64,000 bases of DNA from positions 192,001 through 256,000 of IMG/VR virus record IMGVR_UViG_3300028048_000001; one strand, 5' to 3'. The translations under genes and the position numbers were made by a program. Positions within the stretch are counted from its first letter, which is position 1. Every line of letters begins with the position of its first letter. The notes beneath the pieces are model-generated. The model saw nothing but the letters and a program-made list of their open reading frames with translations. It did not search any database and was not told the DNA's origin. Positions 21,493 to 52,881 of this stretch are shown here, piece by piece. The stretch comes from a virus (Duplodnaviria > Caudoviricetes).

Positions 21493-21720
21493 TCAAAACC
21501 ATTCTACTTTGTCTGGTTGTTGTTCATGAATAAATCCGCAATCTTTTCCTGTATCAATATCAACAATTCTAATTCCTGTTGTTGGTAATCCTAATCTTTT
21601 AGCATTAAAATATTCTTGAGATTTATATATTATATCTCCTCCAATTGGATAATAATCTGCGTTTTCATGACAAAGTTCTCTTAATTTTTCAATCAGATTC
21701 TGTTTAGTTTCTAAAAACAT
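21493..21720 (-). CDS. Small hypothetical protein
   Basis: GGAGAAAATAAAAATG start; terminator 21449-21480. Confidence 0.65.
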   Translation of the reverse strand: MFLETKQNLIEKLRELCHENADYYPIGGDIIYKSQEYFNAKRLGLPTTGIRIVDIDTGKDCGFIHEQQPDKVEWF

Positions 21721-39586: not shown

Positions 39587-40027
39587 ATGGCTATATTTTA
39601 TTTAAGTGATTCTTCTATTAATAATTATCGAAAAATAAAATCTTTAAATGAATCTAAAGATAATAAAAATAGAAAATTTAATATTTATGGTAGAGCAAAT
39701 GGAGAAAATCCAAAACTTAAATTAGATACATCTAATTTAAGTAATATGAAAAAAGATCTTATTAAAATTGCTAATAAAAATAAATTTACCGATTATGATT
39801 ATGAAATTTGGTGTCCATCAGATTATACAAAAGATCAAATAGATGATAAAAAATCTTTATTAATTGGATATTGTTATGTAGATGAAGGAGATAATTATAT
39901 AGTATATTCAAATAAAAATGATAAATTTTATTTATGTGGTGATGGTGGAGATTTAAATGATTTAGTTGAATATTCACTTAAACATATTAAAGAGATTATT
40001 GATGAATTTCAAAGTAGATATTTTTAA
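39587..40027 (+). CDS. MAIF-leader hypothetical protein
   Basis: MAIF...LNE N-terminus. Confidence 0.55.
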   Translation: MAIFYLSDSSINNYRKIKSLNESKDNKNRKFNIYGRANGENPKLKLDTSNLSNMKKDLIKIANKNKFTDYDYEIWCPSDYTKDQIDDKKSLLIGYCYVDEGDNYIVYSNKNDKFYLCGDGGDLNDLVEYSLKHIKEIIDEFQSRYF

Positions 40028-40061
40028 TATTATTTAATTTAAATAATAAAGGAGATTAATT

Positions 40062-40799
40062 ATGCCAACAATTTCTCCAGAAAAAAGAAAACAATGTGAA
40101 GAGCTTATCTATAAAACTTTTGATGCTATAGATCCTACTGGAGCTAATACAGAATACTATCAAACTCTTCTTTCTAATATGACAGATGATCAATTTACTA
40201 AACTTATTTCTGGTAGATTACCTTTTAGATATCATGTATCTCCTTTTAATAATGAACCAAAAATGCCAGATATTATTAATGCATTTAAAGTTTTAAATAA
40301 ACCTCTTATAGAAAAAGTAAAATTGCCATATTTAGCACAAGATAAAAATGGAAGACCAATTGAATCTAAAGAATGTTTAGTTGGTTATATGAATATTAAA
40401 AGACTTAAACAGATGCTTACTAAAAAGAATAATACTGCTATCGAAATATCTAATAGAGATATGAAAACTGGCAGATTATTAAGAAATGATAAAGGTGGTA
40501 CAGAATCTAATAAAGAATTTGAAGGAGCTTTAGCATTAGGTCTTGAAAGAACTACAGAAGAATATGCTAGAATCAAAGCTGCTGCTATGAAAGCTAAAGC
40601 CGAAGCTTATAATACAATTAATGTAAAAGGAGAAGTAAGTTTTAAAGATATAGATACGGATAGAGTAGATAGTATAGCTAAAAGTACAATGAATATATAT
40701 TTAATCGGAGCAGGATTACATAGTAATCTAATAGATGAAGATTATTTTACTCCACATAGTTTAGAAAGAAAGAAAAAGAGATTTGAAAGAGAATATTAA
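40062..40799 (+). CDS. Phage RNA polymerase beta C-terminal subunit (virion RNAP type)
   Basis: LVGYMNIKRLKQML.KKN, RDMKTGRL...DKGG..S..E and YLIGAGL match the split beta C-terminus (GYMYMLKL.H...TQQP.GG region). Confidence 0.75.
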   Translation: MPTISPEKRKQCEELIYKTFDAIDPTGANTEYYQTLLSNMTDDQFTKLISGRLPFRYHVSPFNNEPKMPDIINAFKVLNKPLIEKVKLPYLAQDKNGRPIESKECLVGYMNIKRLKQMLTKKNNTAIEISNRDMKTGRLLRNDKGGTESNKEFEGALALGLERTTEEYARIKAAAMKAKAEAYNTINVKGEVSFKDIDTDRVDSIAKSTMNIYLIGAGLHSNLIDEDYFTPHSLERKKKRFEREY

Positions 40800-40924
40800 A
40801 TAAAAAAATAAAGAGGGATTTATTATCCCTCTTTGTTTTTTTATTTAAATTTTTATTCTTCTTTTCTCTAATTCATATATAAAATTCTGATTTGTTATTT
40901 TACTAAATATTATATATTTTAAAA

Positions 40925-41071
40925 ATAAATGCTAGGCTCATATAGAGCCTAGCTGGGAGAAAATAAAAATGAATCAAAAGTATGTCATTAAAAAACAGGT
41001 AATAGACATACAAGGGCCCACCTCAGCACCATAAGCGAGCACTTTATATATCTGTTAAATCAAAATCTCAC
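40925..41071 (-). ncRNA. Candidate structured small RNA with anti-RBS/anti-AUG segment
   Basis: AACT-N6-TG motif at 41071-41082, G-U-rich hairpin valid only on the minus strand (41012-41044), second hairpin 40980-41011, terminator 40931-40953 with minus-strand U tail. Confidence 0.55.
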
Positions 41072-41121
41072 ATTATATAGTTATTAAAATTAATTTTAAT
41101 AATATATAATTAATATTAATT

Positions 41122-42090
41122 TTATTCATTAAATATATTTTTAAAATTAGCTTTAACTTTACCAGTATTCACATTACAATAAATCATTGTTGTGTCTAAT
41201 TTAGAGTGACCTAAAAGTTCTTTAATTTGTTCAATTGGCATACCTTTATCCATAGCATGAGTTGCCATAGTTCGTCTAAATCTGTGAGGATGAACATTAT
41301 CAACTCCGCTTTTTAAACCTAATTCTTTTAGGATAAGTTGTGCTGCTCTTATTGTTAATTTCTTTTTTGGTTTATCTAGATGACTAAATAGTGGTTCTTC
41401 TGGTTGAGCGTTTCTCTCATTTAAATAAATTTTTAACCATTTTATACATATATTAGATAAGTAAACTATTCGTTCTTTATGACCTTTACCAAAAACTACA
41501 ACTTCTCCTTCTGAGAAGTCTATATCTTGAACATATAAACTTAAAGCTTCTGATATTCTACATCCAGTAGAATAAAGAAATTCTAGAAATGCTCTATCTC
41601 TGCTATTATTACATACTGATCTTAATAAAGTTATATCTTCTTCAGTAAAAGCTTTTTTAACTTTCTTTTCAACTATTATTTTCTCTATTCTATGACATGG
41701 ATTTCTTTCTATGAATTCTTCATTTACTAGAAAATCATAGAAAGCTGATATAAATCGTATCATAGTTTGAGTTGTACTTGCTTGTAAATTATGTTCTTGT
41801 ACATAATATGATAAATAATTTTTAATATCAGATGTAGTTAATTCGGTTAAATTTCTGTTTGGATAAAATTTTCCTAATTTTCTTGCTTCTGATGTATAAT
41901 GTAATATAGAAGATTGAGATAAACCAACCAGTTTTTTATTTTGTATGAATCTGTCTATCAATTCTTCATTTGGTAGAGAGTTTCTTGTAGTTTTGAGAAT
42001 GATTTCTAATACATTTTTGAGTTTAGCCAGTTGATATTCGTTTAAATCTGGCTCCATTAATTTTAGAATCATTTCTACATTACTTACCAT
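41122..42090 (-). CDS. Tyrosine recombinase (XerD-like, invertase-type subfamily)
   Basis: SAM-like N-domain; RDRAFLEFLYSTGCRISE, GKGHKER, HPHRFRRT, LLGH and TTMIY give the full R-K-H-R-H-Y set. Confidence 0.95.
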   Translation of the reverse strand: MVSNVEMILKLMEPDLNEYQLAKLKNVLEIILKTTRNSLPNEELIDRFIQNKKLVGLSQSSILHYTSEARKLGKFYPNRNLTELTTSDIKNYLSYYVQEHNLQASTTQTMIRFISAFYDFLVNEEFIERNPCHRIEKIIVEKKVKKAFTEEDITLLRSVCNNSRDRAFLEFLYSTGCRISEALSLYVQDIDFSEGEVVVFGKGHKERIVYLSNICIKWLKIYLNERNAQPEEPLFSHLDKPKKKLTIRAAQLILKELGLKSGVDNVHPHRFRRTMATHAMDKGMPIEQIKELLGHSKLDTTMIYCNVNTGKVKANFKNIFNE

Positions 42091-42152
42091 ATTTATAAAA
42101 AATATCCTTTCTAAAAAATCATGTTTTTAAATTATTTAAGGAGGACATAATT

Positions 42153-42578
42153 ATGTCGAAAGTCATTTTATCTACTGGATATGAGTTTACCCTTGCTGAT
42201 AATGGTTATGGAGCATCTGATAATAGTGTTAATTTCACCATTATTTGTAATGATAAAACTCTTGAAGAAATTGAAACTGCTTTTACTGGTGTTGAAGAGT
42301 TTAAAGTTGCTCTTGGAAATGATGGAGAAGATCCAAATTTCATTGCTAAATATTATGGATTCACTGCAATTAGTGAAATTGCAAAATATCCAAGATTTAG
42401 TAATGGAATAGATCCAGAAACCGGAGAAGAAATATTCAATACTGCTGTTACTGTTGTATGTATTAAGAAAGCTGTTGAAGACAGACTTAATGATATTGAA
42501 GAGTCTGTTGATGATATAGTTTCTATGATTCTCGGTGGAGATGATCTTTTCCCTGCTGATGAAGAAGGTGAAGTGTAA
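42153..42578 (+). CDS. Tail-fibre-assembly/XkdW-position protein of temperate-phage type
   Basis: C-terminal coiled coil EDRLNDIEESVDDI; immediately upstream of an XkdX-like gene. Confidence 0.5.
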   Translation: MSKVILSTGYEFTLADNGYGASDNSVNFTIICNDKTLEEIETAFTGVEEFKVALGNDGEDPNFIAKYYGFTAISEIAKYPRFSNGIDPETGEEIFNTAVTVVCIKKAVEDRLNDIEESVDDIVSMILGGDDLFPADEEGEV

Positions 42579-49317: not shown

Positions 49318-50217
49318 TTACTTATTCTCAGTAGTCCCAGAAGCTGCAGTATTTCCCTGCTGAGGAGCTGCTGCCTGACCAGTAGGATTCATTGCATTAG
49401 GCATATTAGTATTCATAAATCCCTGCTGAGGAGCTGCTGCTCCAACAGGATTCATACTAAATCCCTGAGTCTGAGGCTGATATCCACCAGCGAAGATAGG
49501 ATTAAACTGAGGATTCTGCTGAGCAAATCCAGCATTCATATTAGGATTAAACCCATACATCTGCTGATTAGGCATCTGAGCTGCCTGAGGCTGCTGAGGA
49601 GCCATATTAGGCTGCTGCATAGCACCATTCTGAGGATATCCATATCCATACATCTGCTGCTGAGGAGGAACCATTCCCCAACCAGGCTGAGTCATCATAG
49701 CATAAATGTTAAACGGATTAACATTATATCCATTAGAACCAGGCACGAAACTATCAATACCTTCATATCTCTTGAAATCCTGAACAGCAATATTATACAG
49801 ATCAGGAATTTTCTCAATAAACGGAATAATCTGGAAATATTCAAGAGCAGCATTAGGATCAAGAGACAGATACATAATCTTAATAGTATTTAAAATATCA
49901 AGAATATTTTCTGTAGCATTTTTAATTTCTTCTGCACTAAAATCCTTAGTATAGAAATGTGTTCCACAAAGACCACAGGTGCAACCACCAGAACCATCAG
50001 CATCTGGAATAAGGGTTGAACTTCCAGTTGCAGAATCATAGTGATTGCACTGTCCTTTTGCAAGTTCCTCTTTGGTTACAGACAATTTAAACTGAGAAAG
50101 TCCTTTCTGAAGAAGTGCAAGATCTTCAGCAGGAAGCCAGTTGATTGTCTTTTTCTGCTGATACTGATTGGGTACCATACCAGGTGCTGGCATAAAACCA
50201 TTAGTGTACATGTTCAT
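49318..50217 (-). CDS. Zn-binding protein with Q/N/P/M/G-rich prion-like C-terminal domain
   Basis: CNH...CTCGLC; C-terminal low-complexity region; terminator 49268-49294. Confidence 0.7.
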   Translation of the reverse strand: MNMYTNGFMPAPGMVPNQYQQKKTINWLPAEDLALLQKGLSQFKLSVTKEELAKGQCNHYDSATGSSTLIPDADGSGGCTCGLCGTHFYTKDFSAEEIKNATENILDILNTIKIMYLSLDPNAALEYFQIIPFIEKIPDLYNIAVQDFKRYEGIDSFVPGSNGYNVNPFNIYAMMTQPGWGMVPPQQQMYGYGYPQNGAMQQPNMAPQQPQAAQMPNQQMYGFNPNMNAGFAQQNPQFNPIFAGGYQPQTQGFSMNPVGAAAPQQGFMNTNMPNAMNPTGQAAAPQQGNTAASGTTENK

Positions 50218-50414
50218 TTTTTATTTCCTCCTTTAGAATAATAAAATATGTACTTTTTGAATCTTAGGTGAAATGTGAGATTTTAACCGTTTGATTCATT
50301 ATTATAATACATTCTTAAAATCATTTTTACAAATTGATTTTTCGAATGAATTATTCAATTCCTTCGTATTATTTAGTTAGGTGCTATTTAAAGTTTAATT
50401 GAAAAATATAGTAC

Positions 50415-50933: not shown

Positions 50934-51992
50934 TTAATATCTTTTTTTCATTTGTTTCTTATAAGAATTTAATTCATTAATAAGACTATACAAATTACTA
51001 GCATTCTTTGTAGCATTTACATAAGAAAGTCTATTAAAGAGTATACTATAAATAGCAATATCCTGATTTACAATAGCAATAGATTGAGTAATATCTCTTA
51101 TCAAAGAATCATCAATTCTAATTAAAATATTATATCTCTCAGGATCATCTATTAAATTTGCTCTTTCAATATAATCATTATAAGTATAGCCTAATGAAAA
51201 TTGTAAAGCTTTATTAATTGCAAGTTTATTAGAACAATAATTTATCAAAGTATCAATAATTACAGGCATAATTATATATTGACCAAATTTATCATAATCA
51301 ACTCTGCCAGCAATCATATCATCAATTATTCTTTCTGCATTTTTACTAACTTCTTCAGTAGTAAGTTTTCCAGACGTAAAATAATTTTCTCCTCGTTGTT
51401 CTATCATTCTGATAAACCAGTTACTAATTTTTCTTCCATTAGGTTTATCATTATTATTGATATGTAAATCTTCTTTAGTAGTAGGTTTTGGAAGCATACT
51501 TCTATCCATATTGATAGGTATAGGTTGTACTCCAAATTTATTATCATAATTAGGAACAAAATCTGATACAAGTTTATCAAAATTCATCTGTGCATTTTCT
51601 TGATTTTCATTATTTTTATTATTGTTTTTAATCAATTTATTTAAATCTAATCCTACTGAAATTGTATTTTTTACCTCTTCTGTAACTAATTTATCTACAG
51701 AAATATTATCTACAGTTTCTTCTTTAGGGTTATTAATAACTTGATCAACAACAGCATTAAATCCACTAAATACTTTATCTTTTACTAGACTCTCACTTAT
51801 ATTACCATTAAAATTCATAGCAGAAGATTCTGCACTTTGAGTAGTATCTTTTTCAATAAGACTATTAAATTTTGGTCTAGTCATCATAGCCATTCTTCCA
51901 GGAATTTGTCTATGATTACCCGAAATATTACTTTGATTATTATTGGATATCATATTAGAATAATCTTCCATATTAATATCAAATTCGTTCAT
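50934..51992 (-). CDS. Hypothetical protein with N-rich disordered N-terminal half
   Basis: AAGGAG RBS. Confidence 0.65.
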   Translation of the reverse strand: MNEFDINMEDYSNMISNNNQSNISGNHRQIPGRMAMMTRPKFNSLIEKDTTQSAESSAMNFNGNISESLVKDKVFSGFNAVVDQVINNPKEETVDNISVDKLVTEEVKNTISVGLDLNKLIKNNNKNNENQENAQMNFDKLVSDFVPNYDNKFGVQPIPINMDRSMLPKPTTKEDLHINNNDKPNGRKISNWFIRMIEQRGENYFTSGKLTTEEVSKNAERIIDDMIAGRVDYDKFGQYIIMPVIIDTLINYCSNKLAINKALQFSLGYTYNDYIERANLIDDPERYNILIRIDDSLIRDITQSIAIVNQDIAIYSILFNRLSYVNATKNASNLYSLINELNSYKKQMKKRY

Positions 51993-52539: not shown

Positions 52540-52881
52540 TTATACTCCATCATTAATAAGATTTCCTAATTCATCGCATTTAGCAAATCTGAATATCTGT
52601 TTAATTTCGGGATATTTATTTTTATCTACATCAGATAAGAATTCGATCATATCTCTGGCATATACAATCCCAGTTAAAATATTTTTATAAATAACAAATT
52701 TATCTACATTTTTTACATTATCGCTTGCATTATTTGCAACAGATATAATTTTATATAAATATTTTGTAATAGGATAAGGCTTATTATTATCATCTTTTAT
52801 ATTCATTTCATATTTAAAATGAATGTAAAAATCTCCAGGTTTAATATCTCTGACAATTGCTATCGGTTTACTGTATTTCAT
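52540..52881 (-). CDS. DUF1653-family protein
   Basis: PGDFYIHFK, YKIISVA, VIYKNI, YARDM.EFLS.VDK.KYP..KQ..RF; early-type motif at 52921-52930. Confidence 0.85.
   Translation of the reverse strand: MKYSKPIAIVRDIKPGDFYIHFKYEMNIKDDNNKPYPITKYLYKIISVANNASDNVKNVDKFVIYKNILTGIVYARDMIEFLSDVDKNKYPEIKQIFRFAKCDELGNLINDGV

Follow-up and report, generated by a model that had tools for sequence, protein, structure and literature searches.

A conserved minus-strand RNA gene with an exposed mirror image of a translation start site in rumen jumbo phages

We found that a jumbo phage of the rumen carries a discrete minus-strand RNA gene, in which a late-type promoter motif, strand-specific hairpins, an open stretch that mirrors a translation start site, and a terminator follow one another. 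The earlier note had proposed such a gene from the window alone (the window being the whole stretch of 64,000 nucleotides analysed, bases 192001–256000 of a 274,241-bp IMG/VR phage genome, here called G000), and a sequence comparison of five genomes agrees with it. Orthologues are present in four other rumen jumbo-phage genomes, and the five genomes form two clades, one consisting of G000 and G001 and the second of G002, G005, and G006. The gene is a conserved and well-defined candidate small RNA with a seed, in giant phages that run their own transcription.

The likeliest mechanism, at a probability that we would put somewhat short of even, is that the RNA pairs in trans with matching ribosome-binding regions and lowers translation late in infection. 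The phage's non-virion RNA polymerase would probably initiate at A41045 from the motif AACA-N6-TA, and transcription would stop at the terminator near 40922, giving an RNA of ~124 nt. Folded, this RNA would have two hairpins at its 5′ end, then an open stretch of 26 nt, and lastly the terminator hairpin. The CAU-N9-CUCC of the open stretch would act in trans by pairing with mRNAs whose ribosome-binding region matches it, the candidate partners being phage genes behind TATTATAAT-type promoters, host genes, or both. Such pairing would keep the 30S subunit off, with less translation late in infection as the outcome. If the RNA does mask start sites, it would add RNA-based translational timing to the gene control of jumbo phages, and nature would have an equivalent of the antisense oligomers with which phage genes are now silenced. 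Little is known of small RNAs in virulent phages. The phiKZ transcriptome paper states that predictions of such RNAs exist for just a few lytic phages and that what they do in these phages is unclear (PMC8244752).

The RNA gene and its predicted transcription signals

The genome of the phage has direct terminal repeats and 26.6% G+C, and its genes include those for gyrase subunits, a family-B DNA polymerase, a DnaB-like helicase, and phage-type RNA polymerase beta subunits. Its closest cultured relatives are the AR9/PBS1-like Bacillus jumbo phages, at ~34% protein identity. DNA nearly identical to positions 40000–42200 of the window was found in 20 public bovine and sheep gut runs (4 of them RNA libraries) from 13 studies, and the phage is thus widespread in ruminants. 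The RNA gene lies between a tyrosine recombinase gene and a convergent 245-aa gene (Table 1). The 245-aa gene has its own two-way terminator (40799–40845), and there is no terminator between the recombinase stop (41122) and position 40953, so that read-through transcripts of the recombinase would end at the terminator of the RNA gene.

Table 1. Positions of the RNA gene, its parts, its neighbours, and three further cassettes (window coordinates unless given as G000:C1)
Feature	Position	Strand	Remarks
RNA gene	41045 to ~40922	-	~124 nt; AACA-N6-TA, two hairpins, 26-nt unpaired stretch, rho-independent terminator
AR9-type late promoter motif AACA-N6-TA	41045..41056	-	AACA at 41056-41053; TA at 41046-41045; predicted +1 is A41045
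Upstream box	41060..41100	-	Conserved only in G000/G001; TTAAAA-16-TATAAT (sigma-70-like, 41099-41072) and AACT-N6-TG (41082-41071)
Hairpin 1 (SL1)	41012..41044	-	Three G-U pairs; loop GGUGCUG kept in every full-length copy
Hairpin 2 (SL2)	40980..41011	-	GUAUGUC/GACAUAC; present in all five copies
Unpaired stretch (seed)	40954..40979	-	26 nt; anti-start-site CAU-N9-CUCC at 40971-40956, mirroring GGAG-N9-AUG
Rho-independent terminator	40922..40953	-	Stem-loop 40953-40931, U run 40930-40922 (terminator scan)
Mini-ORF, 21 aa	40969..41034	+	Follows the mirrored start; no support as a gene
Convergent 245-aa gene	40062..40799	+	Fragment of a virion-type RNA polymerase beta subunit; matches PHROG 3233
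Tyrosine recombinase	41122..42090	-	Pfam assignment; upstream of the RNA gene, same strand
Cassette A (L021)	G000:C1 ~43612-43490, outside window	-	TATTATAAT motif, hairpins, unpaired CAUUAUUUCUCC, strong terminator; fold z -7.95
Cassette B (L022)	G000:C1 ~46415-46290, outside window	-	TATTATAAT motif, hairpins, unpaired CAUUAUUUCUCC, strong terminator; fold z -6.07
Cassette C (L023)	G000:C1 ~133270-133450, outside window	+	AACA-N6-TA; two mirrored starts, CAUUAUUUCUCC and CAUGGAUAAGGCCUCC; strong terminator

Judged by its motif, the AACA-N6-TA at 41056–41045 is probably a promoter. The late promoter consensus of AR9 is AACA-N6-TA/G, with the last A or G as the start site (PMC5312081), and the predicted +1 in the window is the first base of hairpin 1. 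Each of the five orthologues has the six fixed bases, AACA and TA, unchanged, with a variable N6 between them. Genome scans of G000, G001, and G002 revealed that AACA-N6-TA is 2.5–3.8-fold enriched upstream of genes and that its genome-wide count is below those of six permuted or re-spaced controls; enrichment before genes together with genome-wide depletion is the pattern expected of a motif in use. An extended form of the motif reads aAACA-N5-aTAAT. These sequence patterns point to use of the AR9-type late promoter motif by an uncultivated clade of rumen phages. With this motif directly upstream and multisubunit RNA polymerases encoded by the phage, the RNA gene has the make-up of an AR9-type late unit, and we infer its transcription and timing from these features. 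It also has the make-up of a transcription unit of its own, with a motif-inferred promoter, a terminator, and no protein-coding frame: a conserved ORF is absent from the opposite strand, and none was seen by eye on the RNA strand.

The earlier note had placed the 5′ end of a ~145-nt RNA near 41071, at a late motif AACT-ATATAA-TG. That motif is present, but it is one base off AACA-N6-TA/G, and the perfect AACA-N6-TA at 41056–41045 is conserved in all orthologues, so that 41045 is a better position for the 5′ end than 41071 and an RNA of ~124 nt is more likely than one of ~145 nt. We rejected AACT-N6-TG (41082–41071) as the main promoter, since it is confined to the G000/G001 clade and departs from the consensus, and retained it as a possible second start. 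It belongs to the upstream box, in which G000 and G001 share identical runs of 24 and 13 bases beside a diverged spacer and which is not present in the G002 clade. From its sequence, the box may be a second promoter with its +1 at G41071, yielding a longer isoform that begins with GUGAGAUUUU.

On the plus strand, the terminator stem has no trailing U run, and the terminator therefore works one way only. One of its pairs changes from C-G to U-A in G001, and a sheep-gut DNA variant alters terminator positions 40938, 40944, and 40946; by our reading of this variant, a T-A pair becomes C-G, which would be compensatory. Contigs of three rumen metatranscriptomes span the flanking genes and not positions 40894–41055. 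Small RNAs are usually lost from such libraries, and these contigs are uninformative on absence, strand, and ends.

Fold, orthologues, and related cassettes

The 124-nt RNA of the window folds with z = −3.9 against shuffles and the G002 RNA with z = −5.9, and all five RNAs share one fold from the predicted +1. The elements described in the earlier note were all found on the minus strand, namely SL1 with its three G-U pairs, SL2 with GUAUGUC/GACAUAC, the unpaired stretch 40979–40954, and the terminator 40953–40931 with its U run. The covariation analysis across homologues that it had proposed also came out in its favour. In SL1 (6 sequences, 14 pairs), 98.8% of cells pair, as compared to 28–53% with slid partners, and five pairs change on both sides; the observed covariation score was reached by no shuffle, and it is drawn from two clades, that is, from few independent events. 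The SL1 stem has been rebuilt between the clades with its pairing kept. G-U pairs account for 25 of the 82 paired cells of SL1 (30%); these are A-C mismatches on the other strand, so that the helix fails on the plus strand and the minus strand is fixed as the one on which the fold works. The sheep-gut variant changes a G-U pair of SL1 to A-U. In SL2, a U-A pair is replaced by G-C in G001, and the G002 clade has a longer hairpin in the same place, with changes that are G-U-compatible. Conservation of the structure is thus supported by covariation in SL1, and pairing is also kept in SL2 and in the terminator.

Neither the window nor the orthologues nor cassettes A–C gave a match to Rfam 15 at the gathering score, permissive settings returned chance-level matches only (E ≥ 0.27), and ARAGORN found no tRNA or tmRNA. 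The conserved sequence and pairing point to a real, conserved phage RNA family that is not in Rfam 15.

The setting of the gene differs between the clades. G001 (287,868 bp) was found by a recombinase search, at 89% protein identity, and has the RNA module directly behind the recombinase, while more distant relatives with 63% identical recombinases have no RNA module there. G002 was scanned for terminators preceded by a mirrored start site without a real gene on the other strand. There was exactly one match, convergent to a 247-aa gene whose protein is 76% identical to the product of the 245-aa gene in the window. In G005 and G006, the orthologue is likewise convergent to the polymerase gene. 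In G002, the recombinase lies ~64 kb from the RNA gene, and the two are neighbours only in G000 and G001. Since the RNA gene is convergent to the polymerase gene in both clades and the recombinase is remote in G002, the RNA gene travels with the polymerase gene.

This arrangement bears on whether the element is merely the 3′ end of upstream transcripts (here those of the recombinase), made of a terminator and stabilising hairpins with no separate RNA, as the earlier note had offered as an alternative in the form of a recombinase 3′ UTR. Transcripts of the recombinase must indeed read in, as no terminator lies between 41122 and 40953, and cassettes A and B are situated directly behind genes. 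We regard this explanation as quite unlikely, because the module is kept while the upstream gene differs between the clades, a conserved promoter motif stands right at the base of SL1, and a bare terminator needs neither two conserved hairpins nor a conserved open stretch. The recombinase start is also a poor partner of the open stretch (−11.3 kcal/mol, rank 194 of 289; the 245-aa gene ranks 258), so that an icaR-like contact between 5′ and 3′ ends, or any complementarity to the start of the upstream gene, is not supported. A recombinase 3′ UTR, icaR-like self-pairing, and lambda sib-like retroregulation were accordingly rejected: in the second clade the RNA and the recombinase are not adjacent, and there is no pairing with the recombinase start.

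G001 also contains a decayed partial copy of the RNA gene (L037:1501-1592 = G001:C1:80607-80698), which keeps SL1, SL2, and part of the seed and has no promoter motif, CUCC, or terminator. A 3-kb insert separates the full RNA gene from the polymerase gene, with the decayed copy on the far side of the insert, and this layout resembles a duplication by insertion at the RNA gene. An att-like recombination site for the adjacent tyrosine recombinase, or a remnant of one, might be suspected here, given that the element adjoins the recombinase in both G000 and G001 and that the full and decayed copies flank the insert like an att duplication at the RNA gene. Such a site is highly improbable, however: the recombinase is far away in G002, the compensatory pairs, G-U pairs, unpaired seed, and terminator are the pattern of an RNA and not of a DNA site, and dif-like inverted arms are not visible in the sequence.

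Searches further afield returned little. A contig with 48% identity (L095) has an ordinary gene at the equivalent place, and when viral and metagenome contigs were scanned for exact matches to the loop and the seed, the G001 contig alone came back. A covariance model built from the G002 clade (R1) missed the G000 copy, and the three of its weaker matches that we inspected were gene-end terminators; this model is too narrow. In the second clade (G002, G005, and G006), terminator hairpins of the form CCGGTAGAG...CTCTACCGG recur at several gene ends (e.g., L108:1560-1600 and L109:1520-1560), and most of the weak R1 matches are due to them. A region ~1 kb upstream of the G002 orthologue (L076:15980-17000, i.e., G002:C1:215980-217000) has no ORF longer than 86 aa and, judging from this, may hold further non-coding elements.

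Three other cassettes of G000 follow the same plan as the RNA gene, each combining a promoter motif and one or two hairpins with a CAU-N-CUCC that is left unpaired and a strong terminator. Among ~175 terminator-like sites in a scan of G000, 10 are preceded by a mirrored start site, and 3 of these 10 are without a plausible opposite-strand gene, namely the RNA gene at 41045–40922 and cassettes A and B; cassette C, whose two seeds sit farther from the terminator, was missed. Cassettes A and B are paralogous, and their stems differ in sequence yet pair. Opposite A and B lie unrelated frames of 9 aa each, and opposite C one frame of 10 aa and one of 16 aa. G001 has a conserved copy of cassette A (L024), in which the second hairpin is replaced and the seed core unchanged, and cassette C is partly conserved there (~180789–181151).

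The open stretch and its candidate targets

The open stretch is 20–27 nt long in the five orthologues, with an unpaired probability of 0.90–0.97. All five keep an unpaired CAU-N8/9-UUUUCUCC, where N stands for A/U bases, which is the mirror image of an SD, a spacer, and an AUG; UAUUUUCUCC is invariant, and CAU is found 8–9 nt upstream of it in both clades although the flanking sequence differs. A conserved and accessible seed is therefore present in all five orthologues. None of the sheep-gut variants listed falls in it. Mimicry of the 3′ end of 16S rRNA was also considered, but the resemblance presumably ends at CUCC. Read in the plus sense, the seed ranks first or second by shared 11-mers or 13-mers, a measure of likeness to a common start, against ~280 real start sites of G000, and the minus-strand seed thus mirrors the commonest start site of this phage. 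Among the start sites of G002, the mirror image of that genome's seed is no more than average (rank ~100 of 284). A general 'anti-consensus' role is accordingly not conserved, and the conserved trait is the shape of a start site rather than a match to the phage consensus.

A mirrored start site may also be read on the plus strand, where a ribosome-binding site and a tiny ORF could be what is selected, either alone or as a sense/antisense pair in the manner of a type I toxin–antitoxin or of P22 sar. SD, spacing, and start codon are present on the plus strand in every orthologue, and the G001 copy of cassette A, with CAC for CAU, still mirrors a GUG start. The 21-aa ORF that the earlier note had offered as an alternative did not survive the comparison, as four genomes gave frame lengths of 21, 11, 12, and 6 aa, with no relation in sequence between the clades and, within a clade, agreement over the first four or five residues only. 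The peptide of the window is hydrophilic and not toxin-like, so that the conserved, and for a toxin hydrophobic, small ORF of a type I toxin–antitoxin or cis-antisense system is not found on the opposite strand. Moreover, no plus-strand terminator exists and a transcript would run antisense into the neighbouring gene, the natural variant alters the candidate plus-strand promoter region with no listed change in the seed, and the G-U pairs show that the fold is selected on the minus strand. We therefore consider selection for the plus-strand frame very unlikely.

We infer trans action and target identity from complementarity to start regions. The individual matches given in the earlier note were recovered: the seed is exactly complementary over 16 nt to the start of ORF 21493–21720, and it pairs with the starts at 52881 (18 nt) and 58790 (16 nt) with one G-U each. 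Near matches are found at 51992 (one extra A), 61662 (one fewer), 50217 (one G-U and one extra A), and 17367 (11 nt exact). A scan of the phage start regions against shuffled seeds gave an excess: at ≤ −18 kcal/mol the seed pairs with 5.9% of start regions and with none of the internal gene windows (0%), and shuffled seeds pair this well with 0.2% of start sites; this enrichment is automatic and trivial for any sequence that mirrors a start site.

Indirect support comes from the distribution of the strong predicted targets, with the early or late meaning of the two promoter motifs taken by analogy from AR9, a relative at 34% protein identity. None of the 49 genes right behind a late motif is a strong predicted target, as compared to 20 of the 145 genes behind a TATTATAAT motif (Fisher p = 0.0026). 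The absence of strong predicted targets behind late motifs fits a late RNA that would spare late messages. The palindromic TATTATAAT(A) motif precedes 65 of 275 genes and has 149 occurrences genome-wide, and by analogy it may be an early or virion-polymerase promoter. A recurrent AACTATATA-type motif was not found.

The comparison between genomes does not single out a phage target. The genes with perfect 16–17-nt matches in G000 and G001 are not orthologous to each other, which argues against one specific target in the phage; the G002 seed has no long exact match in its own phage genome, and conserved complementarity in orthologous targets did not appear when G000/G001 and G002 were compared. 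It also counts against start-site masking that a stoichiometric RNA directed at a very common start site would need great abundance. The target or targets may lie in the host. When the mirrored 21-mer was compared with reference genomes, eight scattered exact matches were obtained; seven fall in Firmicutes, and together they give no consistent indication of a host.

Two other parts of the RNA were considered for pairing. The loop GGUGCUG was rejected as an mRNA binder: CAGCACC occurs at +28 of the 50217-start gene in G000 and is missing from the G001 orthologue, and we took it as chance. The leader 50262–50300 of this gene (49318–50217, minus strand) holds two complementary sequences, AAAAUCUCACA, whose counterpart is the box immediately ahead of the RNA gene (41062–41074), and AAUGAAUCAAA, whose counterpart is the seed flank. 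The recurrence of GTGAGATTTT and TTTGATTCATT at 50275–50284 and 50290–50300, mentioned in the earlier note, holds. The 5′ sequence of the longer isoform, GUGAGAUUUU, is complementary to the leader of the 50217-start gene in both G000 and G001, and the 11-mer AAAATCTCACA is found, in each of these two genomes, only in the upstream box and in this leader. Part of the match near AAAATCTCACA overlaps a promoter consensus. On these matches, the leader may be a specific target of the longer isoform, or the two may share a promoter-proximal sequence.

Another possibility is that the conserved structured RNA has a different job, in which it binds or titrates a protein (an RNA chaperone, a nuclease, or the adjacent phage polymerase) or acts as a sponge. 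The GGUGCUG loop would then be what matters, and the resemblance of the open stretch to a start site would be secondary. All five full-length copies retain GGUGCUG above a stem that has been rebuilt, the RNA is tightly linked to the gene of an RNA polymerase subunit, a conserved phage target was not found, and the seed of the second clade is not consensus-like. This explanation, which we hold to be rather unlikely, leaves unexplained why CAU and CUCC remain unpaired at start-site spacing in both clades and why CAU-N-CUCC recurs just before the terminators of three other, unrelated cassettes of G000.

A broader form of the start-site masking proposed above, speculative and with only a small chance of being right, would embrace all of these cassettes. 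The rumen AR9-like jumbo phages would then encode a set of timed anti-start-site RNAs, with at least four cassettes per genome behind TATTATAAT-type or late-type motifs, which would function as a translational switch. Each RNA would mask the sites that match its spacer; the late RNA would shut off phage, and perhaps host, messages with the commonest start, and messages behind late promoters would escape.

Comparison with known systems

Among bacterial small RNAs, the closest in design are AbcR1/2 and NfeR1 of rhizobia and the UCCC or C-rich RNAs of Firmicutes, RNAIII and RsaE/RoxS, which are terminator-ended and use an exposed C-containing motif to block the SD of several mRNAs. The phage RNA resembles them as a small terminator-ended RNA with hairpins and an exposed anti-SD motif. 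There is, however, no match in sequence or model, and Rfam gives nothing; the phage seed spans SD, spacer, and AUG (16–21 nt), whereas theirs is a short C-rich motif, and the RNA described here belongs to a lytic-type jumbo phage and lies behind a phage-polymerase promoter motif.

Phage small RNAs that hide an SD or AUG by pairing and so repress translation are known from P22 (sar) and P1/P7 (c4). These are temperate phages, and each RNA acts on one neighbouring gene (ant or icd), being encoded opposite to it or in the same transcript. In the rumen phages, by contrast, the opposite-strand frame is not conserved, the partner gene is absent, and the complementary starts are scattered across the genome. 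The icaR 3′ UTR of Staphylococcus aureus is similar in having an anti-SD stretch behind a gene and ahead of a terminator. It differs in that here the upstream start is a poor partner (194/289), the two clades do not share the upstream gene, and a conserved promoter motif lies internally.

The Bacillus jumbo phage AR9 shares with G000 the motif AACA-N6-TA/G with the last base as the start, as well as split RNA polymerase beta-like subunits (PMC5312081). Some AR9 late promoters drive antisense or internal transcripts, and the terms 'small RNA' and 'noncoding' are absent from the main text of the AR9 paper (PMC5312081). In the AR9 group, the cultured, AR9-like Bacillus phage Goe21 is without such a cassette at the equivalent place. 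Finally, synthetic antisense oligomers laid across SD and AUG silence chosen phage genes (PMC12571901). The logic is the same as that proposed for the rumen RNA; those oligomers are man-made, and the phage RNA would be a natural, phage-encoded form of them.
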